In this document: one piece after another, positions 98 to 30,825 of the stretch
How the letters are laid out: each line of letters starts with the position of its first letter
Position numbering within the stretch: position 1 is the first letter of the stretch
DNA from: Acidimicrobiia bacterium
GTDB lineage: Bacteria; Actinomycetota; Acidimicrobiia; Spongiisociales; JAENVV01
DNA: 64,000 nucleotides
Reading direction: 5' to 3'
Assembly: GCA_041577335.1 (NCBI GenBank)
Contig: JBFGJH010000002.1
Location: forward strand, 16,389-80,388
Translations under genes and position numbers: made by a program
The notes under the pieces: model-generated
Seen by the model: only the letters and a program-made list of their open reading frames with translations
Databases searched by the model: none
What the model was told of the DNA's origin: nothing

Positions 98-976
98 ATG
101 TCTATGTCTGAACCCCTCCACATCCCGCCGGCCGACCCGCCGCTCGTCGACTTCGTCGTCATCGGGGCCATGAAGTCCGGCACGTCGACATTGCATGCGT
201 GGCTCGATGAGAACCCGCAAGTTTCGATGTGCTCGTGGAAGGAGCCGAGCTTCTTCTCCAACGAGGACCGTTGGGAGCGCGGCGTCGCCTGGTACGCGGG
301 TCTGTTCCCTGCTGCCGATGGCGCAAAGCGCGGCGAAGCCTCCACGAGTTACACCGACCCCCGTTTCGCGGCGGTTGCCGCAGAGCGGATAGCCGGCCTC
401 GCGCCCGACGCACGGTTGATATATCTGGTGCGCCATCCCATCGATCGGTCTCGTTCCCACTACCGACATCAGGTCCAGCGGGGCCGAGAGAAACGGCCGC
501 TGGCAGAGGCGTTTGCCGACATCGATGCGTTGTACCTCAGCCAGAGTCAGTATTGGACGTGCCTTCAGCCCTACCTGGAGCGCTTTCCCCGCGACCAGAT
601 CCTGGTGGTGCGCCTCGAGGATCTCGTCACCGAGAGTAATGCCGCCTGGGGCTCCATCCAGCGCCACGTCGGGCTCTCGTCGAGGCCGCGTCCGACCACG
701 GTCAAGAACGTCACAGCCGACAAGAGTCAGTACACGTGGCTGATGCGATGGCTCTGGGAGCGGAATCTCCTCCCGTCCACAGCACTCATACCGAAGCCGC
801 TGCGAGGCTTGGGTCGACGGGTACTGATGCGGGATGACGATGCTTACGATCGTCTCATCCAGAACTCGCACGATCCTGTCCCGGAGGAGATGACTGCTGC
901 CGTGTGGGCCGACATCTCCAACCTCGAGGAATGGCTCGGGTCCACCAAACCGCTGTGGGACAGCTCAGCTCCCTAG
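98..976 (+). CDS. Sulfotransferase family protein (PAPS-dependent)
   Basis: The N-terminus FVVIGAMKSGTSTL fits the 5'-phosphosulfate-binding loop. A downstream YLVRHPIDRSRSHY matches the sulfotransferase 3'-PB region. It runs convergently to the next sulfotransferase, overlapping it by 4 nt. Confidence 0.75.
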   Translation: MSMSEPLHIPPADPPLVDFVVIGAMKSGTSTLHAWLDENPQVSMCSWKEPSFFSNEDRWERGVAWYAGLFPAADGAKRGEASTSYTDPRFAAVAAERIAGLAPDARLIYLVRHPIDRSRSHYRHQVQRGREKRPLAEAFADIDALYLSQSQYWTCLQPYLERFPRDQILVVRLEDLVTESNAAWGSIQRHVGLSSRPRPTTVKNVTADKSQYTWLMRWLWERNLLPSTALIPKPLRGLGRRVLMRDDDAYDRLIQNSHDPVPEEMTAAVWADISNLEEWLGSTKPLWDSSAP

Positions 977-1929
977 GCCCGTGATGGCCTCGTGCGCCGC
1001 CTCAGGTTCTTCCCCTTGGCTCGAGCTCGTTGCGCCTGCCATGTGAGCCATGCAGAGGCTGCGTGAGCCAGGCTGCCCGGGGTAGGCCGCCGGCCAGATA
1101 TCTCGTAGCCGAATGATGCCAAGGTCTTGCCGGCCAGCACCTCGAAGGTGGCGGCGTCTTTCGGCGACATCTGCTCCTTCCAATTGCGCAAGCCCTTGGT
1201 GGGCGGCAAAGCCAGCGACTGGTGGGCCGTGGGGTCGGCGGTCTCTGATCGAAGCTGTTCGCCCTGTTCGAAGTAGCGAAGCATTGCTGGATCGAAATCC
1301 AGCTCCAGGAACGGACTAAGTTCTCTCACGACTCTCTCGGGATCGGAAACCAGGTCTTCGTACTTCATTTCCCGGTATCGGTCTTTGCCCAGTTTGGCCC
1401 CCGACGACCGTCCGATGGTGACTCGGCGCTGCCAATAGAGCGCACCGGCGGGAACGTCTTTGGGCCCAAACTTGGTTTCCACATAGCTCAGGGCCACTGC
1501 CCGACCGTCCCGGATGACGTGCACGAACCGGGCTTCAGGAAACAGAACCGCAAGCCGTTCCATGTGCAAGACATAGCCCGGTGATTTGTCGCCGTAGCGA
1601 GCCTTGCCGCGCGCTGCTGCGTACTGCTGGAACACGCGTCTCACGGCGTCGGCGTAGTCGGCCGGGGGTCGATCGTGGAGGTCGGAAAGGAGCGCCCGTT
1701 CGTCGATTTCGAGACGGCGATAGTCGGGGATCCGGTTGAGATCGCGCACGAACATGTCAGCCGCGAATTTGCCGTCTTTGCCATACGGCCGGTCGGCGAG
1801 GCGGGGGATGAATTGTGACTCGTGGGTAATCGCCAGATCCGGATGGGCAGAGAAGATCGCTTGCACGAGCGTCGTGCCGGATCGGCCGGAGCCGATAAAG
1901 ATCGGGAACACGGGCTGCTGAGACGACAT
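973..1929 (-). CDS. Sulfotransferase (Stf0/Sulfotransfer_3-like)
   Basis: It carries FIGSGRSGTTLV as a P-loop-like PAPS motif and FVHVIRDGRAVALS as a 3'-PB-like region. It is the last gene of the minus-strand operon. Confidence 0.75.
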   Translation of the reverse strand: MSSQQPVFPIFIGSGRSGTTLVQAIFSAHPDLAITHESQFIPRLADRPYGKDGKFAADMFVRDLNRIPDYRRLEIDERALLSDLHDRPPADYADAVRRVFQQYAAARGKARYGDKSPGYVLHMERLAVLFPEARFVHVIRDGRAVALSYVETKFGPKDVPAGALYWQRRVTIGRSSGAKLGKDRYREMKYEDLVSDPERVVRELSPFLELDFDPAMLRYFEQGEQLRSETADPTAHQSLALPPTKGLRNWKEQMSPKDAATFEVLAGKTLASFGYEISGRRPTPGSLAHAASAWLTWQAQRARAKGKNLRRRTRPSRA

Positions 1930-1936
1930 AGGGGCT

Positions 1937-2749
1937 CTAGTAGCCGCTCAGCACACCGAGTTTGCGCCCGTATTCGAGAGCTCGGCCGTACAGCCACAGC
2001 GACAGGGGAAAGACGATGACGCAGAATCCCGTGAGCGCCAGCATGGCGGTATTCGACGACATCGATGGCAGGTCGCTGCCTACCGGCATCAGGACATTGC
2101 GGAGGGCGGCGACGGCGTAGGTGTGGGGGATGAGCCACGAGATCCACTGAAGGGCGGACGGAAGCTCGGAGACAGGGAAGAACACTCCCGAGAAGATCTG
2201 AACCAGCAGTCCGTAGATGAACAGAATGGGGTCACCCTGTTTGGCGAGCACCTTGAGCGAGGCAGACAGGGTGCCGATCGCAAGGCCGGCGACGAGACCG
2301 AGGGCAACAATCAGCAGGGCTGCCCACAGCTGGTCGGTGCGGAAGCGAGCGCCGAGCGCGACACCGATGGCAGCCATCAGCAGGGCATTGACGACTCCCT
2401 GGACGGCTCGCCATTGCACCATCGATATGGGCAAGAGCCGCCAATGGACAGGCTCGACCAAGAACATCTCCAGCCATCCACGGTTGATGGCGATATCGAT
2501 CTCTGTGCTGAAGCCACGCACACCGGTGTCCATGAAGCGGGATGCGAGCAGCCCAATGATCACGAACGAGAAGTAGTCGGGCTGCTCGACGAGGCGCGAG
2601 ACGAAGTAGAAGATGAACACCGGCAGAAGTGCGCTGAACTGATTGGTGATGAAGCCAAGCGGGTAGCTGAGCTCCTGTTGGAGGCCGAGGCGAAAGAACG
2701 CTCCGGCTACCTGAAGAGAACGGCGGGTTGAGCCAATGACAGCCTGCAT
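1937..2749 (-). CDS. ABC-2 type polysaccharide export permease (Wzm/KpsM-like)
   Basis: The translated ORF is about six TM helices of hydrophobic protein. It sits immediately downstream of an ABC ATPase, the typical ABC-2 arrangement. Confidence 0.7.
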   Translation of the reverse strand: MQAVIGSTRRSLQVAGAFFRLGLQQELSYPLGFITNQFSALLPVFIFYFVSRLVEQPDYFSFVIIGLLASRFMDTGVRGFSTEIDIAINRGWLEMFLVEPVHWRLLPISMVQWRAVQGVVNALLMAAIGVALGARFRTDQLWAALLIVALGLVAGLAIGTLSASLKVLAKQGDPILFIYGLLVQIFSGVFFPVSELPSALQWISWLIPHTYAVAALRNVLMPVGSDLPSMSSNTAMLALTGFCVIVFPLSLWLYGRALEYGRKLGVLSGY

Positions 2750-2750
2750 G

Positions 2751-3857
2751 TCAGCGCCTCTGCTCGTCGGGTATCAGCATCTTGGCGAGCAGGTCACGGA
2801 GTGGCATACGCGACACCGTGATCCCGGCGATTTCGTCCAGGCGCCCGTTGGCGGCCGCGAACAGATCGCCGACACCGAGCGTGCTCGACAAAACCACCGT
2901 CTCGTCTTCGCTTCGCACGACTTCGACTCCATCGATGGAACCGAGGAGGTCGACCGCCGCCGCTGCCGCCTCCGGAGTGTTGAACTTGGCTTCGAGGCGC
3001 GGTTGTTCCCACAGGCCCCGCAGGTTGTCGAGATGCCCGTCATAGACAATCTCGCCTTCGTTGAGGAGCAGCACGTGCTCCGGTAGCGCCTCGATCTCTT
3101 CGAGGCGGTGCGAGCTGATCAACGTGGCCATACCTTGCTCAACGGTTGCCTGCTTGATGATCTCGAGGAACTGGTACGCGGCTACGGGGTCGAGTGCACC
3201 GGTCGGCTCGTCCAGGATCAGCACCCTTGGGCGGTGCAGCAGGGCCCGAGCGAGTTGCAGGCGGGCCTTCATCCCCGAGGACAGGGCGAGTGCCAGACGA
3301 CCCGCCGCTCGTTCGAGGTTCACCAATTCCAGCACGCCGCGGATACGCCGGGGCAGCGCTTTGGACGGAATGCCCTGCAGCCTGCCATGGAACATGAGGT
3401 TCTCTTTCACGCTGTGGCGGCCGAGCAGCATTCGCTCGTCTGCGGCATGAAATCCGATGACTTTGCGGACTTGGAATGATTGGGTGGTGACGTCATATCC
3501 GTGGACGAAGCCGTCCCCGGTGGTCGGCGTCGTCAGTCCGGTCAGGGTGCGGAACAACGTGGATTTGCCGGCTCCATTGGGCCCGACAATGGCACAAATC
3601 GTGCCCGGCTCGACCTGGAACGAGACTCCTTTGAGTGCGTGAACCGGCTCCTTGATCGCCGAGCGCAGCAGAACTCTCATCATCGGCGGTGACGGAATAT
3701 ACGTCTTGCTGATGTTGCGGACGTCGACGGCGAAGCGTTCGTCGCCGCCGGTGCCTCTTCTGGGCCCCCGTTGCCGGGCACCCTCATCAGTTCGTCGCAG
3801 ATCTTGTCCCACGCCTAACCCCCTTTTGGAACGCTGGATGGTACCACTGTGTGTCAA
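2751..3857 (-). CDS. ABC transporter ATP-binding protein with C-terminal extension (Wzt/KpsT-like)
   Basis: It has the Walker A motif GPNGAGKST, the signature LSSGMKARL and the Walker B motif VLILDEPT. About 100 aa of C-terminal domain is present, as in Wzt. The true start may be an internal Met. Confidence 0.85.
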   Translation of the reverse strand: MTHSGTIQRSKRGLGVGQDLRRTDEGARQRGPRRGTGGDERFAVDVRNISKTYIPSPPMMRVLLRSAIKEPVHALKGVSFQVEPGTICAIVGPNGAGKSTLFRTLTGLTTPTTGDGFVHGYDVTTQSFQVRKVIGFHAADERMLLGRHSVKENLMFHGRLQGIPSKALPRRIRGVLELVNLERAAGRLALALSSGMKARLQLARALLHRPRVLILDEPTGALDPVAAYQFLEIIKQATVEQGMATLISSHRLEEIEALPEHVLLLNEGEIVYDGHLDNLRGLWEQPRLEAKFNTPEAAAAAVDLLGSIDGVEVVRSEDETVVLSSTLGVGDLFAAANGRLDEIAGITVSRMPLRDLLAKMLIPDEQRR

Positions 3858-3863
3858 CCCCTC

Positions 3864-5063
3864 TCAGTGCCGCGGCGTCTCGATGACGGTGCGGTAGAGC
3901 TTTTCGATCTCGTGGGCGACATCATCGCTGTTGAAGTCGTCGATCATGCGCTGGCGGGCTGCCTCCCCGAGCCGGCGTCGAAGCTCGTGATCGGTGCCCA
4001 ATTCGACCACTGCCTTGGCGATCGCTGCCGGATCTTGGGCCGAGACCAACAAACCGGTGTCTCGGTCACTCACGACCTCTGTCATGGGCGGCCGATCGGT
4101 GGTGACGCAGGCCAAGCCGCTGGCCATTGCCTGAAGGAGTGAGACCCCGAGCCCTTCGTAGAGAGAAGGGAATACAAAGATGTCCGCGGCGGCGAGCAAA
4201 CGGGGGATGTCCGGTCGCACTCCGATGAGGCGCACCGAGTCGGCAAGACCCAGTTCGGCGCTCTCCGTCGTGATTGGTGATGTTTTGGCCCCGGCGCTGC
4301 CCGCCGACAAGAAAACCGCGTTGGGAAGGTGTTCAAGAATCTCCGGCATTGCCCGCACAACGTAGATTTGGCCTTTCTGGGCGACCTGACGTCCTATGTT
4401 GAAGAGCAAGAGCGTGTCTTCGGATAGGCCGAATTCGAGAAGGACGCTTCGGCGCACCTCGCCTCTTTCCTCGGGGTCCGGCAGAGTGGCCGTGTCGACG
4501 CCGCGAGGGATGACCGTGATCTTCTCGGGGGGGATGTGAACGGTCTCAGCCCACGATCGGGCCACTTCCTGGCTCAGAGCGTGAAATCGAGTGATCCACC
4601 GCATCGTCAGTCTGTCGACGGCTCTGTGGAGGGCGAGCTTGAGTGGCGTGACTGCGTCGTTGTCCACCGCATGGACAGGCTCGTGGCTGACGTTCACCAG
4701 GCTCTCGACAACGGGAACGGCAGTGAGCCGACCAGCTACCCGTGCTGCCAGCGCGGCATCCGGGAGAGCACAATGCACCAGGTCCGGCGAGCGACTTCGG
4801 AAAGCGCCGAACATGCGCCGGATGAGTCGGAGCCGATTGCGGGTGCGTTCGTGCTGCGAGTAGAGGTAGGTGATCCGGACGTGGCCGGGCACTTCGCTTT
4901 CCCTGGTGTTGCCCTCTCCGGGGTAGAGACAGAGCAGTTCGTGTTCGAATCCGGCGTCCGTGAACCTTTGAAGGTTCGTGACCAGCTGCTGCTCGGCTCC
5001 CCCTGAGCGCCCGAGGGAGTCGATGACGTGCATGATGCGCATGGGCCGTTTTGATGCGGTCAT
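3864..5063 (-). CDS. Glycosyltransferase family 4
   Basis: The N-terminus is GT4-type (MRIMHVIDSLGRSGGAEQ). The C-terminal segment FVFPSLYEGLGVSLLQAMASGLACV carries the E-x7-E motif. The six-frame ORF runs on to 5276 but that extension overlaps the upstream gene, so I chose the ATG at 5063, which overlaps the upstream stop. Confidence 0.8.
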   Translation of the reverse strand: MTASKRPMRIMHVIDSLGRSGGAEQQLVTNLQRFTDAGFEHELLCLYPGEGNTRESEVPGHVRITYLYSQHERTRNRLRLIRRMFGAFRSRSPDLVHCALPDAALAARVAGRLTAVPVVESLVNVSHEPVHAVDNDAVTPLKLALHRAVDRLTMRWITRFHALSQEVARSWAETVHIPPEKITVIPRGVDTATLPDPEERGEVRRSVLLEFGLSEDTLLLFNIGRQVAQKGQIYVVRAMPEILEHLPNAVFLSAGSAGAKTSPITTESAELGLADSVRLIGVRPDIPRLLAAADIFVFPSLYEGLGVSLLQAMASGLACVTTDRPPMTEVVSDRDTGLLVSAQDPAAIAKAVVELGTDHELRRRLGEAARQRMIDDFNSDDVAHEIEKLYRTVIETPRH

Positions 5064-6202
5064 GGGACGTGCACGATTCGGTCGTAGTGTTTCTGGACGG
5101 CTGCCGCCACGGCTTCGGTGCCATACCGTTCGCTTGCCCAGCGGCTGATGACGGCTGGTGCCGCGAACTCGTCGGTCTCGAAGCCTTTGATGATGGCCTC
5201 GGCCACCGCCACGGCACTGGGGTCGTCGAAGGCAATCCCAACATGGGCAGCGAGCTCTTCGGAAACCCCGCCGCATCTGATCGTTACCGCAGGCGTGCCA
5301 CTGAGGAGCGCCTCCACGATGGCGACCCCGAAACTCTCGCGTTCTGAGGTGTGTACGTACAGAACCGCGTCCTGGAGGAGATCGGCAATCGTTTCGCGCT
5401 TCGTCTGGCCGTGGAATGTGATCGCACTTGCGAGGCCGAGTTCAGAGGCGAGGCGTTCGAGGCTCGCTCGCTGATCTCCACCCCCGATGATGTCGAGGTG
5501 GGTGTCGGGGTACCGAGCCACGACATGTTGCAGAGCGGCAATGAGCAGGTCATGGCGCTTCCGCGTGAGCAGATGCCCGATGGTGACGATCCGCCCGCCG
5601 GTCGAAGGAAGTGGCTTGGGATGGAACAGCGATGTATCGACTGGATTGGGGATAACGTCGAATGTGCCGGTGGCTCCGAGGCGACACGCCGATTCTTTCT
5701 GCTCCTCGCCGACGAAGAAAACTGCGGCAGCCTCGGCAAAGACGAGTTTCATGATGCGTATGCCTTCCCGGCTCAGGTGATGTTCTGGGTCTGGAGCGGC
5801 GAGGCGGCTGGTGTGCTCGGTGAGGACGAACGGGATTTGTAGTTGTCTGGCGACGCTGGGGATGGCTGCGGCGCCGGCGTAGAAATGACCGTGAATGATG
5901 TCCGGGTCCCAGTTGAGGAGCGTGAGCGCTCTGCGGATGGCGGCAGCCTCCCGGCCGGCGTTCCATTTCCAGAACAGACGCACCGGGCGTAGTCGTCGTC
6001 TCCGAACGAATACCGTCGTGAAGCCGCCGACGTCTCCAAGTGCGATTCCTTTTCCGATTCGTTCGGCTTGGCGAGGCAACGTCGGCAAGACACTGAGGCC
6101 GGTAACCCGCGAGAAGCGGGCTACAGCCTTGGCCCAATCGGTGATGAATGTCGGTCCACCCAGGCCGAGCATGACGCAGTGGTATTCACGCATCGGTGCC
6201 AC
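5060..6202 (-). CDS. Glycosyltransferase family 4
   Basis: YVHTSERESFGVAIVEALLSGTPAV is a GT4 E-x7-E motif. The N-terminal GT-B domain is present. Confidence 0.8.
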   Translation of the reverse strand: MAPMREYHCVMLGLGGPTFITDWAKAVARFSRVTGLSVLPTLPRQAERIGKGIALGDVGGFTTVFVRRRRLRPVRLFWKWNAGREAAAIRRALTLLNWDPDIIHGHFYAGAAAIPSVARQLQIPFVLTEHTSRLAAPDPEHHLSREGIRIMKLVFAEAAAVFFVGEEQKESACRLGATGTFDVIPNPVDTSLFHPKPLPSTGGRIVTIGHLLTRKRHDLLIAALQHVVARYPDTHLDIIGGGDQRASLERLASELGLASAITFHGQTKRETIADLLQDAVLYVHTSERESFGVAIVEALLSGTPAVTIRCGGVSEELAAHVGIAFDDPSAVAVAEAIIKGFETDEFAAPAVISRWASERYGTEAVAAAVQKHYDRIVHVP

Positions 6203-7037
6203 CTGTCGCGCGATATCCGAGGGCCATCATTTCGGGGCGACACCGTTCTTCTATCCGCATCATGTTGGCGGTCCCGAAAAACTCGACGAGCGGAACGTTG
6301 CGATTGGCCCCTTTGGCCTGGAATTGCTGATCGACCGACGCGGAGATATCTCCGGCCATGGGGAGTCCGAGCTGCTCCGCCAATCTCGCGATGGCGGCGG
6401 TCTTGTTCGCCCGAAAATCTTCATAACGAATGAGCGTGATGTCGGCCTCGTGGTCGAGGTACACCCGGACCATATCGGCCCATCGATCGGCGATCGCTTC
6501 GAGGTAGGTACTGCGATCGAAACCGGGCCGACCTTCGCCAAGGATCAAGCGCCAAGGTTTGGGAATATCGGCCCACCGGTCTGCGGCGATGGCTTCGTCG
6601 TCACCGGCGAGATCGAGTCGGTCGAGGATGCTCCGGATGTTGTCGCGCGGGTCGCGAACCACGAATACGAACTGGGAATGCGGGAAGCGGTTGTGGAGAG
6701 CCGGGTAGATCAGTGTCAGGTTGGGGTGCTTGACGATTGGAGCCGCGAACTCGTCTCGGTTCCTTTTGATGAGGTCCTCGAGGTCGGCTTGGCCGGAAAC
6801 GATGCGGGGAATGATGAGGTCACGGATCTCCTGTTTGAGGTCGATCGTCACGTCCATGCCCGTTTGCTCACCGAGCAAGGCAGCAATGACCGAAGTGCCG
6901 GCTTTCTGGTGGCCCAGGATGAACACGGGCTGATGGCTCGGCGGGAGCGGTGGAGCGGTAAACGAACGCCATCGGGTGATCGCGGAGCGCCGGGCGCGTC
7001 CGGCGGCCGAGCGGATGCGGTGGGCAGTGATGGTCAT
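6186..7037 (-). CDS. Sulfotransferase family protein
   Basis: It has FILGHQKAGTS as the 5'-PSB P-loop and FVFVVRDPRDNIRS as the 3'-PB motif. I chose the start at MTITAH (the ATG at 7037), which overlaps the deacetylase stop by 4 nt. The longer ORF upstream of that is an out-of-frame overlap with the deacetylase gene. Confidence 0.75.
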   Translation of the reverse strand: MTITAHRIRSAAGRARRSAITRWRSFTAPPLPPSHQPVFILGHQKAGTSVIAALLGEQTGMDVTIDLKQEIRDLIIPRIVSGQADLEDLIKRNRDEFAAPIVKHPNLTLIYPALHNRFPHSQFVFVVRDPRDNIRSILDRLDLAGDDEAIAADRWADIPKPWRLILGEGRPGFDRSTYLEAIADRWADMVRVYLDHEADITLIRYEDFRANKTAAIARLAEQLGLPMAGDISASVDQQFQAKGANRNVPLVEFFGTANMMRIEERCRPEMMALGYRATGGTDA

Positions 7038-7858
7038 GGTCCGTCGTATTTGGTCAATCGGCGCCGCACATTCTCTTCCGTGCGTTGTCCCCGGCGCACC
7101 TTGCGTTTGAAGAAGATCACTCCATCGTCGAGCTGCACGGGGATCCGGTTGAGAAGGAGCGGGTCGCTGGCGCCGTCGATGGGCTGGCCCCCCCCGAGTA
7201 CTGCTGAGGCGTACTGTTCCCGAACCGCACTGTCGCATGATCGTGACCAGTAGCCCCACGGATAGGCGAAGTGGTCGGGCTTGACGCCGGTGCGGCGTTC
7301 GATGAGTTCGGTGGACAGGCCGATCTCTTCCTCTGCCTGTGGTGGTTCCAGCGTTCGGAAGTCCGGGTGGGTGTGGGTGTGGGCGCCGACGGTCACGAGA
7401 CCCGACTCCTGCATCGCATTGACCTGCTCCCAGGTGATCGGCGCCGATCGGCCGTCGTCCGACAACGGCGTCCGAGCTTCGATGGGGTGGCTGGTGAGGT
7501 AGACCGTGAATGGGATGTGGAATTCCTTGAGCAGTGGATAAGCGTTGCGGTACATATCGTCGTATCCGTCATCGAACGTGAGCACCACATGGTCAGCCGA
7601 GCCGGATTCCGCCCTCCGGTCGATCGCCTCCTCCAGGGGAAGGACCGAGAAGCCGGAGTTGGTCAAGTACTCGAGGTGACTACGGAAGTGGTCAGGGTCG
7701 AGGTCCATTTGTTTGCGGTTGCCGGCGCCGATTTGGTGATAGATGAGGATCCTGGGGCCTGGAAAGGCTCCCAAGGAAAGGTCGAGGAGCGAGAAGACCG
7801 TTTTGGCCGCCGCTCGGACGGGAGAGCCCATCAGGCGGATCCGCCGGAATCGAGCCAT
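7034..7858 (-). CDS. Polysaccharide deacetylase (CE4/NodB-homology)
   Basis: The NodB motifs are present: VVLTFDDGYDD, YLTSHPIEAR, a histidine cluster and HTHTHPDF. It is translationally coupled to the sulfotransferases on both sides. Confidence 0.85.
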   Translation of the reverse strand: MARFRRIRLMGSPVRAAAKTVFSLLDLSLGAFPGPRILIYHQIGAGNRKQMDLDPDHFRSHLEYLTNSGFSVLPLEEAIDRRAESGSADHVVLTFDDGYDDMYRNAYPLLKEFHIPFTVYLTSHPIEARTPLSDDGRSAPITWEQVNAMQESGLVTVGAHTHTHPDFRTLEPPQAEEEIGLSTELIERRTGVKPDHFAYPWGYWSRSCDSAVREQYASAVLGGGQPIDGASDPLLLNRIPVQLDDGVIFFKRKVRRGQRTEENVRRRLTKYDGP

Positions 7859-8754
7859 TGGAGGTCGTAGCCGAGGAGGGCAGCAAGGTGCTCGTTGTGT
7901 TGTCGGAAGACGTCGGCCAGATGCTCACGAATGCCCGTGTCCACGGCGAGGCTGTCGGCGCGCCCCGCTCTCCCATAGCTGTGATTGGCAAACTCGGGTG
8001 GGTGCCAGTCCTCGATTCCCAAGAACGATTCGATCGCCGAAAGGGCGTGCCGAGGGTCGGAGGTGAGGTCCTCGAACCGAACCACCATCATCTGGTCTTG
8101 GGGGTACCAGGCTTGCCACCGGATGAGCTGTTCGGCGTATTTGCCTCGCTCGACATAAGAGTACCGTCGCAGCGGCCGGGCGTGATACGTCGGGTCGTCG
8201 GCGATGCGCTCCATTTCTCGGGCAAGGCGCTCGTCCTCGCGCTGCAACGCCTCCTCGAGAGTCAGCGGTTCTTGGCCGAGGCGCCGATTGTGTCCGTATT
8301 GGGAAATCGCACGGTCGATGGGATTGCGAATGAGGGTGATGATCTTCGCTTCTGGGATCAGGTGGGCGGCCCGCTGCGCCGCCAGGGGATGCAAGAGGTA
8401 ATCGGGGGTCGCCTCGAACGCCAAGGTGGGTTGCGCGCGTCGCCTTGAACGGACAGTTCGGCTTGCGCTGAGTGGGAAATGTGCCCGGTACCAATCCTCG
8501 CCCTCGAGGAACCTCGTCGAGAAATACTCCACCTCCTTACGAAGCGATGGATACACCTGCGGATGTGCTCCGAGATATTTGTACAGCGAACTCGTCCCGG
8601 ACCGTTGGGCGCCGACGATGAGCAGGTCGGGGAGGCTGCGCGCCCGAGAAGTCAACTGGCGTGTGCGAACGCGGGTCTCGGCGAGCTGGCGGCGCCGTTT
8701 GGTCGGAGTCTTCTCCTTGATCCATCCAGCGATCGCTGGAGTCACCGCAGGCAC
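7831..8754 (-). CDS. Sulfotransferase family protein
   Basis: LLIVGAQRSGTSSLYKYL is the PAPS P-loop and ITLIRNPIDRAISQYGH is the 3'-PB motif. Confidence 0.8.
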   Translation of the reverse strand: MPAVTPAIAGWIKEKTPTKRRRQLAETRVRTRQLTSRARSLPDLLIVGAQRSGTSSLYKYLGAHPQVYPSLRKEVEYFSTRFLEGEDWYRAHFPLSASRTVRSRRRAQPTLAFEATPDYLLHPLAAQRAAHLIPEAKIITLIRNPIDRAISQYGHNRRLGQEPLTLEEALQREDERLAREMERIADDPTYHARPLRRYSYVERGKYAEQLIRWQAWYPQDQMMVVRFEDLTSDPRHALSAIESFLGIEDWHPPEFANHSYGRAGRADSLAVDTGIREHLADVFRQHNEHLAALLGYDLQWLDSGGSA

Positions 8755-8757
8755 GGC

Positions 8758-11124
8758 CTAGCGACCAGAGCTGGCGGTATCGTCGTAGGAGCTGAGACGC
8801 TGCTCTCGGGGAACCTGGGGGAGGGGCTCCATATCGTTGTATGGCCACTCTTTGATCCAGTCGACGACCGCTCGGGTGCGAGACACCGGAGTCGGATGGT
8901 TCGGGGACGCGCTGGTCGCGTCGATGGCTACCTGGTCGGTCTCGGGCGCAGAACGAGGCTTCTTCTTGGGGGGTGGCGCAGGCGGTTCGGATGGCACGTT
9001 GACGCTCTGGGGTTTCTGACTGGTGCGGCGCGAGGGTGCTGGTCCGGGTGACGATGCCGCTTCCTTCGCGGGTGCTGGCGCAGCGGGTGCTGGCACCTCG
9101 GCGGCCGGAGTATCGGATGGCTGGGCAGCCGGAACCGCGGGTGCAGGTGCGGTGGGCGCTGCGGCTTTCTTCTGCTTCTTTTCGGTTTTCTGTTCTTTCT
9201 TCTTGGCTCTGGTTGCCTTCTTGGTCTGGGTTGGACTGCTGGTCGTAGCTCGGCTCCCTTTGCGGCTCTTCGGGCGGAAGAAGTTGCGAATCCTGCCGAA
9301 GAACCCTGACGATGGTGAGCCGGTGAGCAGCGCCGCACCCAAGGCGGGAGCCAGCCCTGCATCGACGTCGGTAAGCAGTAGATCCAGGGCGGCGCGGCGG
9401 CTCACTCGCTCCAGGACCACGGCCACGACGCCGTCGACCCGCTGGCGGAGAGCCTGGGTGAGCTCGGCCGACGCAGGTGGCATGACTGCGAGGATGACGT
9501 CGAAGTGCTGACGAGCCGCGCTCATCAGATCAACGAAACCGTCGGTGAGCACAGCATCGGTGGCGTCGTCGATCATGCTCCCTGGGGCAACGACTCTCAG
9601 TTTCCTCTCCTCGGGCCCGTCGATCAGGGTTTCCTTGAAGTAGGAGTTGCCGGTCTCCCGGTCATTGCGCATGACCTGCAGGAGTTTGGAAACGGTTACG
9701 CCGCTGCTTCCTTCGTAGTGGACGGTGGTGTCGAAGTTCAGATCGACGACGAGGACGAAGCGGTCGGATGCGGCGAGGCGGTTGCCGATGTCGAGCGCCA
9801 AGATGCTCACTTCGCTGTCGTTGACGCTCACCCCAGACAGTCCGAGGACCAGCGTGGTAGGCGATGAATCGACATAGCGGAGTATTGCGTGGCGCATCTG
9901 GCGAACACCATCGGCGCGTTCGCCTGCCAATCGTCCCGAGCGGTCCGTGCTGGCGCGCCCCTTCGTCGTTGCTGCACTGGGCAGCTCGGCGATGACCGGC
10001 AGCGGAGCGATGTCGGTCGGCCCGTAGATATTGCCGCGAGCGCTCTTGGATGCAAAGAGCAGACCGACACCGAGCAGGGCCCCGGCCAGCAGTCCGAGAA
10101 CGGCGTTGAGTGGAGCGGAGACGGGCGACGGGGTGAGGTCCTCGACCTCGACGGGTACCAGGACCGCCGGAGTCTCGCTTTCCGCTTCGAGGAAAAGATC
10201 GCCGAACTCGGAGGTGAGGTCGCCGTAGCGGTCCTCGAGCGCGTCGAGCGTCAACTGATCGGTGAGACCTCCCTCCGGCACTTCGTCAGGTGTGACGTCG
10301 CGCGGATCCTGAGGCACGTTGGGCGCAGCCGGCGTTTGCGAACCTCCCTGGTTGCCCTGATTCGTCTGCGGCGTGATGTCTGCCGGGTTGAGTCCGTTCT
10401 CCAAAGCAATGACTACGAGCTCAGACCTGATCGCGGCCATCCGGAATTGGATGTCGTCGATCTGTTCTTGAATCTCCTCGGGGTCATCGACTCGTTCGTC
10501 GCCCGATTGCGCCAACACGAGGTTGACTTCGAGTTGGGTGAGCTGCTGGTCGAGGGCATCATGGAGGTCCTGGAGAGAATCGATACGAGCTTGGAGGGCG
10601 ACGCCGATGACTGGCTCCTCGACGATCAACTCGACCGGTGTCAGGCGTTCGATCTGTTGCAGGACTTCGGCAGCTTCGATGATGATCTCGTCGAGGCGTG
10701 CTTGGCGTTCATCGGCACGTGCTTGAGCCGTGCCGTTGACGTAGGCGGCGCGAAGGCTCTCGGAGGCAACCGCGGCCTCGGTCCGGTCTTCGCTTCTCGC
10801 CAAAAAGAGGAGTCGGAAGTTGGGCTCGTCGATGGCCAACTGGCCGACTCGTTGCTCGAGGGCGGTGGCGTTGTAGACACGTGCTTCTTCGGCGGCTGCC
10901 CTGACGAGTTCCAGCGTGGTGTCGCGACTCCGATCGCCCAGCTCCGATTCGAACTCGACGTAGGTGGTCGCCTCGAAGAGAGGTTTGATGGCTTGGTTGG
11001 CCCGCTCTGATATGGCGTACCCGAGCACTGCACCCACGAGCGCCAGCGCGACGACTGCCCACCACTTGCGGCGGACCATTCGAAAAAGACCTGTGAGAAC
11101 TTTCAAACCGCTCATACCCCCCAA
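8758..11124 (-). CDS. Polysaccharide co-polymerase / BY-kinase-like protein with degenerate Walker A and long K/A/P-rich tail
   Basis: An N-terminal TM helix is followed by a long coiled-coil periplasmic region and a second TM helix. The cytoplasmic domain is CpsD/Wzc-like (VLVVDLNFD and FDVILAVMPP), but the Walker A position reads GLSGVSVNDSEV, with no GKS/T. The C-terminal 150 aa or so is low complexity (KKATRAKKKEQKTEKKQKKAAAPTAPAPAVP and so on). Confidence 0.6.
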   Translation of the reverse strand: MGGMSGLKVLTGLFRMVRRKWWAVVALALVGAVLGYAISERANQAIKPLFEATTYVEFESELGDRSRDTTLELVRAAAEEARVYNATALEQRVGQLAIDEPNFRLLFLARSEDRTEAAVASESLRAAYVNGTAQARADERQARLDEIIIEAAEVLQQIERLTPVELIVEEPVIGVALQARIDSLQDLHDALDQQLTQLEVNLVLAQSGDERVDDPEEIQEQIDDIQFRMAAIRSELVVIALENGLNPADITPQTNQGNQGGSQTPAAPNVPQDPRDVTPDEVPEGGLTDQLTLDALEDRYGDLTSEFGDLFLEAESETPAVLVPVEVEDLTPSPVSAPLNAVLGLLAGALLGVGLLFASKSARGNIYGPTDIAPLPVIAELPSAATTKGRASTDRSGRLAGERADGVRQMRHAILRYVDSSPTTLVLGLSGVSVNDSEVSILALDIGNRLAASDRFVLVVDLNFDTTVHYEGSSGVTVSKLLQVMRNDRETGNSYFKETLIDGPEERKLRVVAPGSMIDDATDAVLTDGFVDLMSAARQHFDVILAVMPPASAELTQALRQRVDGVVAVVLERVSRRAALDLLLTDVDAGLAPALGAALLTGSPSSGFFGRIRNFFRPKSRKGSRATTSSPTQTKKATRAKKKEQKTEKKQKKAAAPTAPAPAVPAAQPSDTPAAEVPAPAAPAPAKEAASSPGPAPSRRTSQKPQSVNVPSEPPAPPPKKKPRSAPETDQVAIDATSASPNHPTPVSRTRAVVDWIKEWPYNDMEPLPQVPREQRLSSYDDTASSGR

Positions 11125-11303: not shown

Positions 11304-13055
11304 TTGATCCCCGTTGCGGCGCCCCAACAATCGATGAGGTCGCTCCCCATGTCCCTTCCCATCAATCCCCGGCTGGTAGTCGCAATCGCACTCACGTTAG
11401 GTGCTTTTGCGCTCGCTTTTGGTGGCATCCAGGCAAACGCCGCCACGGTCGTCCAGATCTCCGGCGAGGTTTCCTACCCGCAGTCGACCACCGTCACATC
11501 AGACGAGGTGCTTCGCTTCGATCCCGCCCAAGACACGACGCTGGAGGTGAGCGGGAACCTCGTCATCGAGGGGACGCTCGAGATGAAACCCAATAAGGGC
11601 GTGACGCACACGCTCCGGTTCCTCGCGGTCAATGAGGCCGGCATGGTCGGCGGCGGGATGCAGGTGCTCGAATCCGATCGCGGGCTCTGGGTCGTGGGAA
11701 GCGGACAGCTCGACCTGCACGGCGAAGAAACAGTGGGTTGGAATCGCACCGGGACGGATTCCACGTGGAGCTCGAGCGACGACCTGAGGATCGCCCCCTA
11801 CCTCGCAGGTGATTACGCGTCCGGAGGATTCGACTCCTTTGCGCTCGGTTCGCCCGTGCCGGTCGCCGATCCCACACTTCCCCCAACAGAGGTCATGAAT
11901 CTGACCCGGTCGGTCAACATCGAAGGTACGCCGGGGGGACGATCCCATGTGATCGTCATGAGCTCCCAGCCGCAAGAGGTTCGCTACGCCACGTTCCGGT
12001 ACATGGGACCACGCCAGGACTCCGAGGGCGTGATGGGCAGGTATCCGATCCATTTCCACATGAACGGTGACAGCTCCCGAGGATCGATCGTCGAAGGAAA
12101 TGTGGTCCGTGAGTCAGGAAATCGCGGCATCGTCGTTCACGCGTCGCATGGCGTGATCGCACGGGGCAACGTGATCTATGACGTAGTCGACGACCCATTC
12201 TGGTGGGACCTCGGTGAGGAGAACGCCTCCCACGACGTGGTATTGGAGGGCAACCTCGCAGGTCTGGTCAAGAACGACCCCAAGAAACAGGGCTACACCC
12301 TGTCGGCATTCCACCTCGGTCGCGGTGAAGGCAACGTTGCCAACGGGAACGTTGCAGTGGGCGTCCAAGGCAACAAGAACTGCTCTGGCTTCAACTGGCC
12401 GAGTCAAGGGAGCGGCCTGTGGGAGTTCCAGGACAACGTTGCCCACAACAACAAGTGTCACGGCATCTTCGTGTGGCAGAACAGCTCCGCCAACCACCTC
12501 ATCGAGGATTTCATCGCCTACCGCAACGGGTCTACCGGCGTGAATCACGGGGCTTACACCAATGACTATGTCTACGAGAACCTCTACTTGTTCGAAAACC
12601 TGGAATACGGCGTGGTCAGCCACGCGTTCTCGCACCCGCCGCGTTCAGGGCAGCTCCAGCAAACCTGGTCGTGCGTCACAGTCGTCGGCTCGCCAGTCGG
12701 CCTGTCGGTTTCGGTTTCCAACGCCCCCGAGTTCGGGCATCCGGCGTTGTTCGACCATTTCACGGTGATCGATACGCCGGTGGCCACGCATGTCGAGCAA
12801 AACGCACTCGAAAACGGCCAGACGCTCGAAACAAGGGTGACGTTGGTGAACTTCAATGTTCCATGTGTCGGATCGCCGGTCCCTGATCCTGACGAGCCTG
12901 ATCCTGACGAGCCTGATCCTGACGAGCCTGATCCTGATCAGCCTGATCCTGATCAGCCTGATCCTGACGAGCCTGATCCTGACGATCGGCCGGAGCGGCC
13001 CGACCGGCCGCAACGTCCGCCCCGTGGTCCACGGTGGATATCGGGTACTCCGTAA
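11304..13055 (+). CDS. Secreted right-handed parallel beta-helix protein with C-terminal (PDPDEP)n tail (putative glycan hydrolase/lyase)
   Basis: It has a signal peptide (VVAIALTLGAFALAFGGIQANA) and repeated beta-helix rungs (NVVRESGNRGIVVHASHGV, NVAHNNKCHGIFVWQNSS). It is a paralogue of the next gene. The start could instead be the ATG at 11334 or 11349. Confidence 0.65.
   Translation: MIPVAAPQQSMRSLPMSLPINPRLVVAIALTLGAFALAFGGIQANAATVVQISGEVSYPQSTTVTSDEVLRFDPAQDTTLEVSGNLVIEGTLEMKPNKGVTHTLRFLAVNEAGMVGGGMQVLESDRGLWVVGSGQLDLHGEETVGWNRTGTDSTWSSSDDLRIAPYLAGDYASGGFDSFALGSPVPVADPTLPPTEVMNLTRSVNIEGTPGGRSHVIVMSSQPQEVRYATFRYMGPRQDSEGVMGRYPIHFHMNGDSSRGSIVEGNVVRESGNRGIVVHASHGVIARGNVIYDVVDDPFWWDLGEENASHDVVLEGNLAGLVKNDPKKQGYTLSAFHLGRGEGNVANGNVAVGVQGNKNCSGFNWPSQGSGLWEFQDNVAHNNKCHGIFVWQNSSANHLIEDFIAYRNGSTGVNHGAYTNDYVYENLYLFENLEYGVVSHAFSHPPRSGQLQQTWSCVTVVGSPVGLSVSVSNAPEFGHPALFDHFTVIDTPVATHVEQNALENGQTLETRVTLVNFNVPCVGSPVPDPDEPDPDEPDPDEPDPDQPDPDQPDPDEPDPDDRPERPDRPQRPPRGPRWISGTP
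12883..12990 (+). repeat. 18-bp tandem repeat (cctgatcctgacgagcct x6, minor variants) encoding PDPDEP/PDPDQP
   Basis: The repeat is directly visible in the sequence. It is in frame within the CDS 11304..13055. Confidence 0.9.
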
Positions 13056-13250
13056 TCGAAATCTCCCGGCCTGCCTGAACTCTCGCCGACTTGTTGCACG
13101 TTTAACTAAAGCGGGGAGCCTGGTTAACCGATGCTGCATGAGGGTTCAGGCGGGCTGAGGGGCAACACACATCTCCCAAGATGGGAGTGTCGCCCGCACA
13201 GGAACAGCCCACCCGGGCAAACCCAGAAAACCACGAGAGGTCGTTCTCCC

Positions 13251-17033: not shown

Positions 17034-18284
17034 GTGAGAACACAGGTTGCCATTGTTGGGGGTGGTCCGGGAGGCGCGGCGAGCGCGCTTTTCCTGGGGG
17101 AGCACGGCATCGACTCGATCATCATCGAAGCTGAGTCGTTTCCGCGGTTTCATATCGGCGAATCGATGACTGGTTGGGTCGCCGAGAAGATACGCGGATG
17201 GGGCCTCGAATCCGCCATGAAAGAGAACCGTTTTCCGATCAAACGAGCCGGCACCGTCTACGGGTCGTCGGGTTCGAACCGGTACGACGTGCCCATCACC
17301 GCACGGGTGGCCGGCACCGAGCGCCGACAGGTGGAGACGTGGCAGGTTCGCCGGTCCGTGTTCGACAAGATGCTCTTGGACGTTGCTGTCGAGCGGGGCG
17401 CCCGGCTGGTACACGGGAAAGCCATCGAACCGATCTTCGACGACGAGGGCGCTGTCTCGGGAGTCACCGTGCAGCTGGCGTCGGGCGATACCACCACGAT
17501 CGAGGCCGACGGCATCATCGACGCATCCGGACGCAAGACCTGGATGTCGAGCCTCGGCTTCGCAGGCAAGAAGGAACGCGGCGGTTACGAGAGCCAGATC
17601 GCTGTCTTCAGCCATGTGAAGGGGGGGATCCGCAACGGTGAGATGGAGGAGGGAAACACGCTGCTGTTCTACCGAGAGGTCGATCACTGGTCGTGGTTCA
17701 TTCCCGTCGACGACGAGACCGTGTCCATTGGAATCGTCACTCCTGCGTCCTATTACAAGTCGATGAAGGAATCCAAAGAAGAGTTCTTTGCTCGCGAATG
17801 TCGCGAGCTGAATCCCAACCTGGCCGAACGCCTGGCAGATGTCGAATTGGTGGAACCGGTGACGGCCACCGCCAACTTCTCCTACAAGATTCCCGAATTC
17901 ACGGGCAAGGGCTGGATGTGCGTCGGTGATGCCCACCGATTCATCGACCCGTTCTTTTCGTTTGGCATCCACCTTGCATTGTCGGAAGCTGAGAAGGCAG
18001 CCGAATACATGGCGTCCTATCTCGGCGGTGAGTTGGACGGCGCCGACCCGTTCGCTGAGTATGCAGCTATATGCGAGCGAGGGATGGATACCGTGCAAAC
18101 GCTGATGGACTCCTTCTGGGCCAATCCGCTCGGCTGGGGCTACATGCTCCACTACACGGATCACGGGGGCGACGTGCTCGACATGTTCGGCGGCCGCATC
18201 TACGAGGAGGAGCCGCTTCCGGCGTTGCTTTCGATGCGTGAGATGGTGGCCCGCTCGGACAGAGGACTCGTTCCCGTTTCGTAG
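17034..18284 (+). CDS. Flavin-dependent halogenase-like FAD monooxygenase
   Basis: It has the FAD motif IVGGGPGGAASA, a WxWxIP motif (HWSWFIPV) and an FxxPxxSxG motif (FIDPFFSFG), which together diagnose flavin-dependent halogenases. The start codon is GTG, preceded by the RBS agagggg. Confidence 0.65.
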   Translation: MRTQVAIVGGGPGGAASALFLGEHGIDSIIIEAESFPRFHIGESMTGWVAEKIRGWGLESAMKENRFPIKRAGTVYGSSGSNRYDVPITARVAGTERRQVETWQVRRSVFDKMLLDVAVERGARLVHGKAIEPIFDDEGAVSGVTVQLASGDTTTIEADGIIDASGRKTWMSSLGFAGKKERGGYESQIAVFSHVKGGIRNGEMEEGNTLLFYREVDHWSWFIPVDDETVSIGIVTPASYYKSMKESKEEFFARECRELNPNLAERLADVELVEPVTATANFSYKIPEFTGKGWMCVGDAHRFIDPFFSFGIHLALSEAEKAAEYMASYLGGELDGADPFAEYAAICERGMDTVQTLMDSFWANPLGWGYMLHYTDHGGDVLDMFGGRIYEEEPLPALLSMREMVARSDRGLVPVS

Positions 18285-21176: not shown

Positions 21177-21262
21177 CTTGAAGCCTCTGGCTTCAAGAAG
21201 CGACGATGCGCTCTGGGCTCCAACTTCTTGAAGCCTCTGGCTTCAAGAAGCGACGATGCGCT
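21177..21262. repeat. Tandem 36-bp direct repeat (period 50 bp), each copy containing a 9-bp-stem hairpin (tcttgaagcc-tctg-ggcttcaaga); the second copy spans the stop codon of the CapD-like gene
   Basis: Copies at 21177-21212 and 21227-21262 are identical. Each contains an internal palindrome. They lie between convergent genes, so a bidirectional terminator is likely. Confidence 0.7.
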
Positions 21263-30743: not shown

Positions 30744-30817
<74 letters not shown>

Positions 30818-30825
30818 CGAATCGA

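Follow-up and report, generated by a model that had tools for sequence, protein, structure and literature searches.

Among bacteria, sulfated polysaccharides have been described as essentially confined to cyanobacteria (PMC8205485, PMC13390465), and exopolysaccharide (EPS) clusters that contain sulfotransferases are also found in some marine Gram-negative bacteria (PMC11641403, PMC11766843). A search of the literature for Acidimicrobiia together with sulfotransferases found nothing relevant. Here we describe a locus from an uncultured member of the Acidimicrobiia (phylum Actinomycetota; contig JBFGJH010000002.1 of assembly GCA_041577335.1). We analyzed a stretch of 64,000 nucleotides of this contig, which we call the window; coordinates refer to this window unless another locus is named. 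The analysis supports the presence of four distinct sulfotransferase (ST) paralogues (ST-A to ST-D), all predicted to use 3'-phosphoadenosine 5'-phosphosulfate (PAPS), in or abutting an operon for glycan assembly and export. From its gene content, the locus most likely makes a cell-surface glycan that is decorated with sulfate.

The xss cluster of Synechocystis PCC 6803, which is responsible for synechan, resembles this locus in that it is an EPS cluster with several glycosyltransferases (GTs), a polysaccharide co-polymerase (PCP), and two STs of different subfamilies (PMC8205485). (ST genes have also been noted in ABC-type EPS clusters of cyanobacteria; PMC8205485.) However, the xss system depends on Wzx/Wzy and needs an outer membrane polysaccharide export (OPX) protein, as its host is diderm, while the locus described here has an ABC-2 exporter and a GT of the GT-C fold and no Wzx, Wzy, or OPX. 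Furthermore, its STs number four instead of two, with the gene of a CE4-family deacetylase set between two of those, and the NTPase domain of its PCP-like protein is degenerate; in some relatives, this protein is fused to an ST. The phylum, Actinomycetota, differs as well. In the actinobacterium Actinoplanes missouriensis, the EPS cluster wps-1 contains two STs, of which one is similar to heparan-sulfate STs, together with a Wzz-like protein and a glycoside hydrolase (PMC13390465). Sulfation by wps-1 was also inferred rather than chemically verified (PMC13390465). In contrast to our locus, wps-1 is Wzx/Wzy-dependent, it has no CE4 gene next to an ST, no ABC-2 exporter, and no GT-C protein, and it comes from the class Actinomycetes.

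Parts of the locus recall three other kinds of systems. The first is the animal N-deacetylase/N-sulfotransferase (NDST; structures 1nst and 8ccy; PMC10864358). The P-loop, the catalytic glutamate, and the 3'-phosphate-binding (3'-PB) motif of ST-D align to its N-sulfotransferase (NST) domain, a deacetylase gene is translationally coupled to ST-D, and deacetylase-ST fusions occur in the ST-C family. In contrast to NDST, the deacetylase and the STs are separate polypeptides here, the deacetylase belongs to CE4, and the P-loop of ST-D has an arginine where NDST1 has Lys614. (The deacetylase of NDST clusters nearer to CE18 (PMC13353177); its assignment to CE4 was not borne out, and PMC10864358 does not use that term.) A heparosan-like backbone was rejected as well, since the window lacks heparosan-type synthases (GT45/GT2/GT64) and UDP-glucose dehydrogenase; where we speak of a glycosaminoglycan-like (GAG-like) polymer, we make no claim about the backbone. 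The second is the rhizobial Nod system (NodB, NodH/NoeE, and NodIJ), which shares a CE4 de-N-acetylase, PAPS-dependent STs with an R-x-G P-loop (PF13469), and an ABC-2 exporter. It differs in that NodC and NodA are missing here, where the predicted system relies on GT4 enzymes and a lipid primer and includes PCP-like and GT-C proteins, and matches to the Nod models of NCBIfam fall far below their cut-offs. The third comprises Wzm/Wzt for O antigens and TarGH for wall teichoic acid, which share priming of the WecA/TagO type, assembly and modification in the cytoplasm, and ABC-2 (type V) export. They differ in that the ATPase here is nearer to DrrA/ABCA than to Wzt, TagH, or KpsT and lacks the carbohydrate-binding domain of Wzt, no LCP ligase was seen here, and the presence of PCP-like and GT-C proteins is atypical. 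Judging from the predicted genes, what is new is the combination of four STs, an ABC-2 route, a GT-C protein, an ST-linked PCP scaffold, and a putative NDST-like deacetylase/ST module, in a class from which no such glycan has been described.

We searched the open reading frames (ORFs) of the window against Pfam, NCBIfam, and the sequences of the PDB. All of our evidence is computational, and it derives from metagenome-assembled genomes (MAGs). Nine genes on the minus strand run in one direction, from 11079 to 973, according to the ORF listing, a screen of GC content by codon position, and Pfam (Table 1). An earlier note on this DNA had proposed this operon, with a co-polymerase-like protein, three STs, a CE4 deacetylase, two GT4 enzymes, and an ABC-2 exporter, and had placed a fourth ST in convergent orientation at its end. 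Every one of its ORFs is present at its coordinates with domain calls far above chance, and both the operon and the convergent ST hold up. The starts of five genes (those with a longer ORF in Table 1) were corrected from homologues and annotated copies; for GT4b we used the start of the annotated copy in a related locus (L001). With these corrections, the successive gene junctions are 3, -1, -4, -17, -4, 51, 1, and 7 nt, which is consistent with a single operon. The CE4 gene overlaps both the stop codon of ST-D (TGATG) and the start codon of ST-C (ATGA), and the stop codons of the convergent ST-A and ST-B genes share 4 nt. A scan for promoters and terminators gave no promoters, and terminator-like sites were at chance level.

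Testing the four STs with hidden Markov models had been suggested, and all four exceed the gathering cut-off of PF13469 (Sulfotransfer_3; 27 bits): ST-A scores 54.9 bits, ST-B 118.5 bits (E = 6.5e-34), ST-C 47.0 bits, and ST-D 76.6 bits. ST-C also exceeds the cut-off of PF00685 (Sulfotransfer_1) with 23.3 bits (cut-off 22). Pairwise identities among the four are just 21-32%. As the earlier note had stated, each of them keeps both PAPS-binding motifs, the 5'-phosphosulfate-binding (5'-PSB) P-loop G-x-x-[KR]-x-G-[TS] and the 3'-PB motif R-x(7)-S. These motifs are GAMKSGTST and RHPIDRSRS in ST-A, GSGRSGTTL and RDGRAVALS in ST-B, GHQKAGTSV and RDPRDNIRS in ST-C, and GAQRSGTSS and RNPIDRAIS in ST-D, and they are at least 90% conserved within each family (n = 10 for ST-A, 51 for ST-B, 26 for ST-C, and 30 for ST-D). 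The homologues of ST-A and ST-B were drawn from related loci, and the ST-C alignment contains 26 of 675 representatives. Conserved residues include K26-S27-G28-T29, K48-E49, and R112...S120 in the ST-A family and G13, R16-S17-G18-T19-T20, E37, and R140-D141-G142-R143 in the ST-B family. In the ST-C family, G42, Q44, G47, T48, K103, R128, S136, and E206 are invariant, as are G48, Q50, R51, G53, T54, S55, S56, R72, K73, E74, R143, P145, R148, and S151 among the homologues of ST-D.

Comparison with proteins of known structure gives different relatives for each ST. ST-D is most similar to the NST domain of NDST1 (1nst, E = 2e-24), ahead of the 3-O-sulfotransferase 3-OST-3A (1.1e-16), while the closest match of ST-A is 3-OST-3A (7.6e-13). 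ST-B is closest to the tyrosylprotein sulfotransferase TPST1 (1.1e-13), followed by TPST2 and the polyketide sulfotransferases of CurM and OLS. ST-C has no significant match and only a faint similarity to Teg12 and Teg14, which sulfate glycopeptide antibiotics (best E = 0.33), so its assignment rests on Pfam and on conservation within its family. A catalytic glutamate has been described for NST and HS3ST1 (PMC11625862). In our alignments, E74 of ST-D corresponds to E642 of NDST1, E49 of ST-A to the glutamate of 3-OST-3, and E37 of ST-B to that of TPST. In the aligned ST-C family, D66 and K103 are conserved and no glutamate or histidine could be assigned as the base. The E-x-H-x-x-D motif of 3-OST enzymes, which we take to be EPHFFD in 3-OST-3A, is not retained: ST-A has KEPSFFS and ST-D has KEVEYFS, so that the glutamate is kept and the histidine and aspartate are replaced. 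Domains of the ST-C family are found fused to GT2, to Wzx, to TPR, GT4, and methyltransferase domains together, and to a PIG-L de-N-acetylase. The fusions to GT2, GT4, and Wzx link this family to polysaccharide synthesis.

The first gene of the operon encodes the PCP-like membrane protein. It has a first transmembrane (TM) segment (residues 21-39 of the ORF), a coiled-coil ectodomain of about 300 residues, a second TM segment (341-359), a degenerate cytoplasmic domain that resembles P-loop NTPases, and a basic tail rich in proline, alanine, and lysine. This is the two-TM arrangement of a PCP, and long helices are predicted between the TM segments; the AlphaFold2 (AF2) model has low confidence (pLDDT 46.6, from an alignment of 4 sequences) and was too poor for a fold search. 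Thus the topology agrees with the earlier description of this protein as co-polymerase-like, but the match to Wzz is below threshold (PF02706, 19.8 bits, E = 1e-3; cut-off 25.5), as is that to a bacterial tyrosine kinase model (TIGR01007, 5e-3), and a Walker A motif (GxxxxGK[ST]) is missing from the kinase-like domain of this protein and of its homologues P0241, P0242, P0243, and P0072. There are at most 2 tyrosines in the last 40 residues of these proteins. Among PDB sequences, the cytoplasmic domain matches just Wzc (3la6), with E = 1.4. A word-indexed search for homologues returned 3 matches, and was probably swamped by the low-complexity tail. In two homologues (P0243 and P0072), an ST of the ST-D type is fused to the C-terminus, and in the window 3 nt separate the stop codon of the PCP-like gene from the start of ST-D. 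The fusions argue that ST-D acts at the membrane, on the PCP-like protein as a scaffold. A low-molecular-weight phosphotyrosine phosphatase (PF01451, 1.6e-20) is encoded at 41671-42102 (-), about 30 kb from the PCP-like gene; a pairing of the Wzb/Wzc type is unlikely because the kinase-like domain lacks Walker A.

To see how far the locus is conserved, we scanned one genome per species with the ST-D alignment, which gave 80 loci, and compared the proteins of the window to them with tblastn. Nearly all of these loci belong to MAGs of Acidimicrobiia, among them Ilumatobacteraceae, Microthrixaceae, and Iamia; the few exceptions come from Ktedonobacteria or lie on contigs binned as Thermoanaerobaculia. 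The ST-D homologues that carry names are likewise proteins from MAGs of Acidimicrobiia or Acidimicrobiales. An identical permease is encoded on a 10.7-kb contig of the MAG GCA_041564755.1 (L001), and the full operon is syntenic in L004 (75% identity of ST-D, with both of the beta-helix genes described below) and in L007 (85%). A recurrent gene order, GT4-GNAT / WecA-like / GT-C / GNAT / GT4c / PglF-like / PCP-like / ST-D / CE4 / GT4b ... ST-B ... ABC-2 / ATPase, is shared by about 15 MAGs at the species level (L006, L009, L012, L019, L041, L047, L048, and L069 among them). The PglF-like gene is directly upstream of the PCP-like, ST-D, and CE4 genes in L006, L009, L012, and others, and the gene for the short-chain dehydrogenase/reductase (SDR) adjoins ST-D in L029 and L074. 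Across the 80 loci, GT4b is present in 43, an ST-B-like protein in 37, the GNAT protein in 31, GT4c in 26, GT4-GNAT in 23, and a CEMIP-type homologue in at least 17. Because the operon and the block at 21-30 kb of the window are contiguous in relatives, we consider them one functional unit, and the limits of 973-11124 that had been given for the locus are too narrow: synteny adds this block and the GT-C gene. In the window, the two halves are parted by the beta-helix genes, the GT-C gene, and the genes for a FAD enzyme and an acyl-CoA dehydrogenase. Four STs in one locus had also been thought notable, but loci with multiple STs recur in Acidimicrobiia MAGs: 51 of the 80 have at least two, and 14 have at least four.

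Two further observations concern the STs in these relatives. In L001, a 196-amino-acid ST remnant (9427-10017 of that locus, minus strand), which lies about 3-3.5 kb to the left of the start of our window, has kept its 3'-PB motif (LLRDGCDVVAS) and lost its P-loop; at the orthologous position, L007 encodes an ST of 289 amino acids that is cut off by the locus boundary. This implies that the locus once had a fifth ST, which relatives still have. Separately, three loci from Chloroflexia/Ktedonobacteria MAGs (L079, L082, and L083) each contain an array of four tandem ST-D-like genes (37-41% identity to ST-D), and the other proteins of the cluster were not detected near these arrays, so the ST-D family also occurs in a distinct context.

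Among the added genes, the WecA-like primer matches the wecA model TIGR02380 with E = 1e-23, which is below the cut-off of that model. The first beta-helix protein has a single match among PDB sequences, the hyaluronidase TMEM2 (8c6i, 3.2e-5), and from this similarity the CEMIP-like protein is a candidate hydrolase or lyase for the glycan. Its C-terminus contains a (PDPDE/Q)n linker, encoded by a 15-bp tandem repeat at 12882-12985 (6.9 copies, 95% matches). The second beta-helix protein carries S-layer homology (SLH) repeats. SLH anchoring usually requires a pyruvylated secondary cell-wall polymer; since we see no pyruvyltransferase of the CsaB type in the window, one may ask which anionic polymer this protein binds. 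The FAD-dependent oxidoreductase has a paralogue (about 50% identical) on the other side of the operon, at 8111-9331 (-) of L001; homologues of the FAD enzyme are found in 3 of the 80 related loci and of the acyl-CoA dehydrogenase in 9.

Table 1. Genes of the operon, the extended cluster, and its right flank. E values are from Pfam unless stated; "ORF to" gives the upstream end of the open reading frame where the start was corrected.
Feature	Coordinates	Strand	Evidence or remark
ST-A, 3-OST-like sulfotransferase	98..976	+	Sulfotransfer_3 1.9e-14, Sulfotransfer_1 2.2e-13; convergent on operon
ST-B, TPST/CurM-ST-like sulfotransferase	973..1929	-	Sulfotransfer_3; last operon gene
ABC-2 family permease	1937..2749	-	ABC2_membrane 8.1e-13
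ABC exporter ATPase, 353 aa	2751..3812 (ORF to 3857)	-	ABC_tran 1.5e-29
GT4b, 399 aa	3864..5063 (ORF to 5276)	-	Glycos_transf_1 1.8e-34, Glyco_transf_4 4.9e-20
GT4a	5060..6202	-	Glycos_transf_1 3.2e-31
ST-C, divergent sulfotransferase, 283 aa	6186..7037 (ORF to 7259)	-	Sulfotransfer_3 4.8e-12
CE4 polysaccharide deacetylase, 265 aa	7034..7831 (ORF to 7858)	-	Polysacc_deac_1 2.7e-27
ST-D	7831..8754	-	Sulfotransfer_3 4.3e-21, Sulfotransfer_1 2.8e-19
PCP-like membrane protein, 773 aa	8758..11079 (ORF to 11124, 788 aa)	-	topology; sub-threshold Wzz
CEMIP/TMEM2-like right-handed beta-helix protein, secreted or anchored	11304..13055	+	CEMIP_beta-hel 6.9e-17; N-terminal hydrophobic segment 24-42
Second CEMIP-like beta-helix protein, C-terminal SLH repeats	13131..15362	+	CEMIP_beta-hel 3.1e-15, SLH 1.1e-13
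GT-C fold membrane glycosyltransferase, 478 aa	15411..16847	+	AF2 fold; no Pfam
FAD-dependent oxidoreductase (FAD_binding_3/Trp_halogenase-like)	17034..18284	+	
Acyl-CoA dehydrogenase	18297..19445		
PglF/CapD-like UDP-GlcNAc 4,6-dehydratase, membrane-anchored	21243..23231	-	Polysacc_synt_2 1.1e-106; PseB/FnlA-type NCBIfam
GT4d	23433..24584	+	Glycos_transf_1 1.8e-27
GT4-GNAT fusion	24581..26341	+	Glycos_transf_1 2.6e-35, Acetyltransf_1 3.9e-8
WecA/MraY-family polyprenyl-phosphate HexNAc-1-P transferase (primer)	26329..27279	+	Glycos_transf_4 1.3e-26
GNAT acetyltransferase	27318..28268	-	Acetyltransf_9 6.3e-12
GT4c	28261..29361	-	Glycos_transf_1 2.9e-37
SDR sugar-nucleotide epimerase/reductase	29372..30361	-	Epimerase 4.7e-47
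tRNA-Met	30744-30818		between cluster and SulP
SulP+STAS anion permease	31108..33006	+	Sulfate_transp 1.5e-88, STAS 2.6e-15; membership uncertain

We think it probable that the operon is one half of a conserved gene set of the Acidimicrobiia that builds a heavily sulfated, amino-sugar-containing glycan of the cell envelope. In the pathway that we propose, the WecA-like enzyme would first prime polyprenyl phosphate with an N-acetylhexosamine (HexNAc), perhaps a 6-deoxy-HexNAc for which the PglF-like dehydratase and the SDR enzyme would be responsible, and the five GT4 enzymes would then lengthen the chain at the cytoplasmic face of the membrane. The CE4 enzyme, in the cytoplasm, would strip N-acetyl groups, and the four PAPS-dependent STs would sulfate different positions. 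At least ST-D would do so at the membrane, where the cytoplasmic domain of the PCP-like protein would serve it as a tether or docking site, and the amine that CE4 frees may be a target of ST-D and/or ST-C. The ABC-2 exporter would carry the finished lipid-linked glycan across the membrane. Outside the cell, the GT-C transferase would act on the glycan and the CEMIP-like enzymes, one of them anchored by its SLH repeats, would trim or remodel it. Sulfation is placed before export because PAPS is a cytoplasmic metabolite, and this order fits both the ABC route and a CE4 enzyme without a signal peptide.

What the CE4 enzyme contributes is the part of this pathway with the strongest competitor. The protein scores 95.6 bits against PF01522 (cut-off 23.1), and its metal-binding and catalytic motifs, TFDDG (T85-F86-D87-D88-G89) and HTxxH (H151 and H155), are at least 90% conserved in 37 homologues. 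By a hydropathy heuristic, neither a signal peptide nor a TM segment was detected in it, and none of the 37 homologues has a hydrophobic N-terminus. In 21 of 76 loci, the CE4 gene follows immediately downstream of ST-D, and in 37 of 80 it lies no more than 10 kb away; the adjacency persists down to about 43% identity of ST-D, including in the contigs binned as Thermoanaerobaculia. Furthermore, a protein with the ST-C-like domain fused to a PIG-L de-N-acetylase (P0332) is 40% identical to ST-C. Because a CE4 enzyme without a signal peptide is encoded by a gene that overlaps those of the NDST1-like ST-D and of ST-C, the arrangement suggests that CE4 and ST-D and/or ST-C may form a bacterial module for N-deacetylation and N-sulfation. 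N-sulfation is thus favored by the gene overlaps, by the adjacency of ST-D and CE4, by the NST domain as the best match of ST-D, and by the deacetylase-ST fusion.

There is, however, close to an even chance that the CE4 enzyme is not tied to N-sulfation. The amines might instead give a partly cationic polymer, as in poly-N-acetylglucosamine (PNAG) or polysaccharide intercellular adhesin (PIA), or be re-acylated by GNAT enzymes, and all four STs would then be O-sulfotransferases. The closest solved relatives of the CE4 enzyme are indeed PNAG deacetylases (IcaB, 4wcj, 1e-15, and then PgaB), followed by PplD; the extended cluster has three GNAT domains, which would offer the amine another fate; and the CE4 gene is missing from the 10-kb neighborhood of ST-D in 43 of the 80 loci. 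To our knowledge, all of the characterized bacterial carbohydrate sulfotransferases (NodH, NoeE, KpsS, LpsS, and Stf0) are O-sulfotransferases. For NodH and KpsS, this is described in PMC11625862. Against an exclusively O-type set stand the features that favor N-sulfation, including the higher score of ST-D on the NST domain of NDST1 than on any O-sulfotransferase, and the lack of a signal peptide in the CE4 enzyme. The fullest form of the N-sulfation proposal, in which the CE4 enzyme, coupled to the NST-like ST-D on its PCP-like scaffold and/or to ST-C, is a prokaryotic counterpart of NDST that makes N-sulfo-hexosamine in a multiply sulfated, GAG-like envelope polymer that is remodelled by the CEMIP/TMEM2-like enzymes, is tentative and, from sequence comparisons, somewhat doubtful.

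The GT-C protein bears on what becomes of the glycan. It has no match in Pfam or NCBIfam, but its AF2 model is confident (pLDDT 88) and has the multi-TM architecture of GT-C enzymes, and on the basis of this model the protein is a member of a previously unannotated GT-C family (139 matches) that is conserved in the cluster. Its structural neighbors include AglB, STT3, and PglB, as would be expected if the sulfated glycan were not a free or wall-bound polysaccharide but were used for the glycosylation of proteins such as S-layer or SLH-anchored surface proteins, in a system like pgl of Campylobacter or agl of archaea in which the GT-C enzyme moves a lipid-linked sulfated oligosaccharide to protein. 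Haloarchaeal S-layer proteins carry sulfated N-glycans. A PglF-like dehydratase, acetyltransferases, a polyprenyl-phosphate primer, an ABC exporter, and GT4 enzymes with weak matches to PglH, PglJ, and Agl16 would all suit such a system, as would the fusion of a GT-C homologue to a DegT aminotransferase (P0207) and the nearby gene for an SLH-domain surface protein. However, the protein ends shortly past its last TM segment; at 478 residues, it lacks the large extracytoplasmic C-terminal domain of STT3, PglB, and AglB with its WWDYG-type motif, and it has no match to the STT3 model of Pfam. Furthermore, a PCP-like chain-length protein points to a polymer, and the matches to PglH and PglJ, far below their cut-offs, are generic GT4 similarity. 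We therefore consider protein glycosylation unlikely.

The exporter had been labeled Wzm/Wzt, which goes further than the evidence allows. The permease scores 48.8 bits against PF01061 (cut-off 26.9), has at least four strongly hydrophobic segments, and is encoded 1 nt from its ATPase, so this is an ABC-2 pair in a glycan cluster; it has no match among PDB sequences, neither to Wzm nor to TarG. In NCBIfam, the ATPase is most similar to DrrA (3.4e-56), followed by GldA, RbbA, and NodI, and reaches none of their cut-offs. Its top 60 matches in the PDB are nucleotide-binding domains (NBDs) of ABCA (ABCA3/ABCA1) and ABCB proteins, with no Wzt or TarH among them. The C-terminal domain of Wzt (PF14524) was not found in it, and its C-terminal extension is just about 60 residues. 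We rejected membership in Wzm/Wzt as unproven, and only the designation as an ABC-2-type exporter is justified.

These similarities to NodI/NodJ and DrrA/DrrB models, which for the permease (DrrB/NodJ-type) are also below the cut-offs, could mean that the product is a small oligosaccharide or glycolipid that carries sulfate, has lost part of its N-acetyl groups, and leaves the cell as a signal or an envelope lipid, like Nod factors or the sulfoglycolipids of mycobacteria. The CE4 enzyme has a similarity to NodB (2.4e-5) and ST-B to NoeE (1e-10), both below the cut-offs. The operon lacks a GT2 of the NodC type, a NodA acyltransferase, and genes for polyketides or acyl lipids, however, and five GT4 enzymes, a WecA-type primer, PCP-like and GT-C proteins, and secreted beta-helix enzymes are better suited to a lipid-linked polymer, which makes a small product improbable. 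It is just as hard to credit that one or more of the STs act on a non-glycan substrate, with ST-B as a tyrosine sulfotransferase like RaxST or TPST or another as a small-molecule sulfotransferase, as the solved relatives of ST-B and the faint similarity of ST-C to Teg12 and Teg14 might suggest, given that ST-B closes the glycan operon 7 nt past the permease gene and is represented in many of the related loci, that fusions join ST-C-like domains to GT2, GT4, and Wzx proteins, and that the window has no genes for peptide precursors, polyketide synthases, or nonribosomal peptide synthetases.

Several points weigh against our preferred explanation, that the locus builds a sulfated glycan of the cell envelope. 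It is drawn from the sequences of MAGs and not from chemistry. The exporter, from its sequence, is not assignable to an ABC family that is specific for polysaccharides, and the assignment of the PCP-like protein is weak, given its sub-threshold Pfam match and the low pLDDT of its model. For the attachment or polymerization of the product, our searches of the window gave neither an LCP ligase nor Wzx or Wzy. The cytoplasmic location of the CE4 enzyme is a prediction of the hydropathy heuristic, and its relatives IcaB, PgaB, and PplD work outside the cell. The similarity of ST-D to the NST domain does not fix N- over O-sulfation. Finally, no cysC or cysDN genes for the supply of PAPS were found in the window, either by Pfam on all large ORFs or by a scan for the motifs of APS kinase, CysD, and sulfurylase. 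Motifs of APS kinase (GLSGSGKST and RDPKGLY) and CysD (SGGKDS) do lie less than 10 kb from ST-D homologues in L028, L050, and L055, which implies that the lineage has the PAPS pathway and that it is sometimes linked to the STs. A SulP permease about 20 kb from the operon had also been pointed out. It is there, and the extended cluster ends on the right about 750 bp before it, but the linkage is not conserved (a SulP homologue is found in 0 of 87 related loci), so it adds little and its position is probably coincidental.

Three other regions of the window are worth recording. At 36754-39108 (+) is a gene for a 784-amino-acid protein that contains two ABC ATPase regions and matches a CXXCXGXG zinc finger, probably a UvrA-like paralogue that is unrelated to the glycan locus. 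The 519-amino-acid protein encoded at 45352-46911 (+) combines an ATP-grasp domain like that of IQCH with the C-terminal domain of PGM1 and may be a peptide or amino-acid ligase. Genes for a multisubunit cation/proton antiporter of the Mrp/Mnh type (Proton_antipo_M, MbhD, and MbhE) at 59024-63553 (-) are a possible sign that the habitat is saline or alkaline.

In summary, this locus and its roughly 80 relatives in species-level genomes of the Acidimicrobiia offer a concrete candidate gene set for a sulfated glycan. N- and O-linked sulfate have been measured in GAG-like polymers of wastewater granular sludge, whose genes and producers are unidentified (PMC10483923), and the lack of an active prokaryotic NDST is the bottleneck of microbial heparin production (PMC13353177, PMC11069525). 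If the CE4/ST pair does N-sulfate, it would be the first bacterial NDST-like system and would bear on this bottleneck. It would also give genes and producers for N- and O-sulfated, GAG-like biofilm polymers (PMC10483923), as well as enzymes for the biomanufacturing of heparin-type products. Abundant families of soil, sediment, and activated sludge would then be among the Acidimicrobiia that carry such a system. And if the STs only O-sulfate, sulfated-glycan biosynthesis would still extend to a major and poorly cultured class of actinobacteria.

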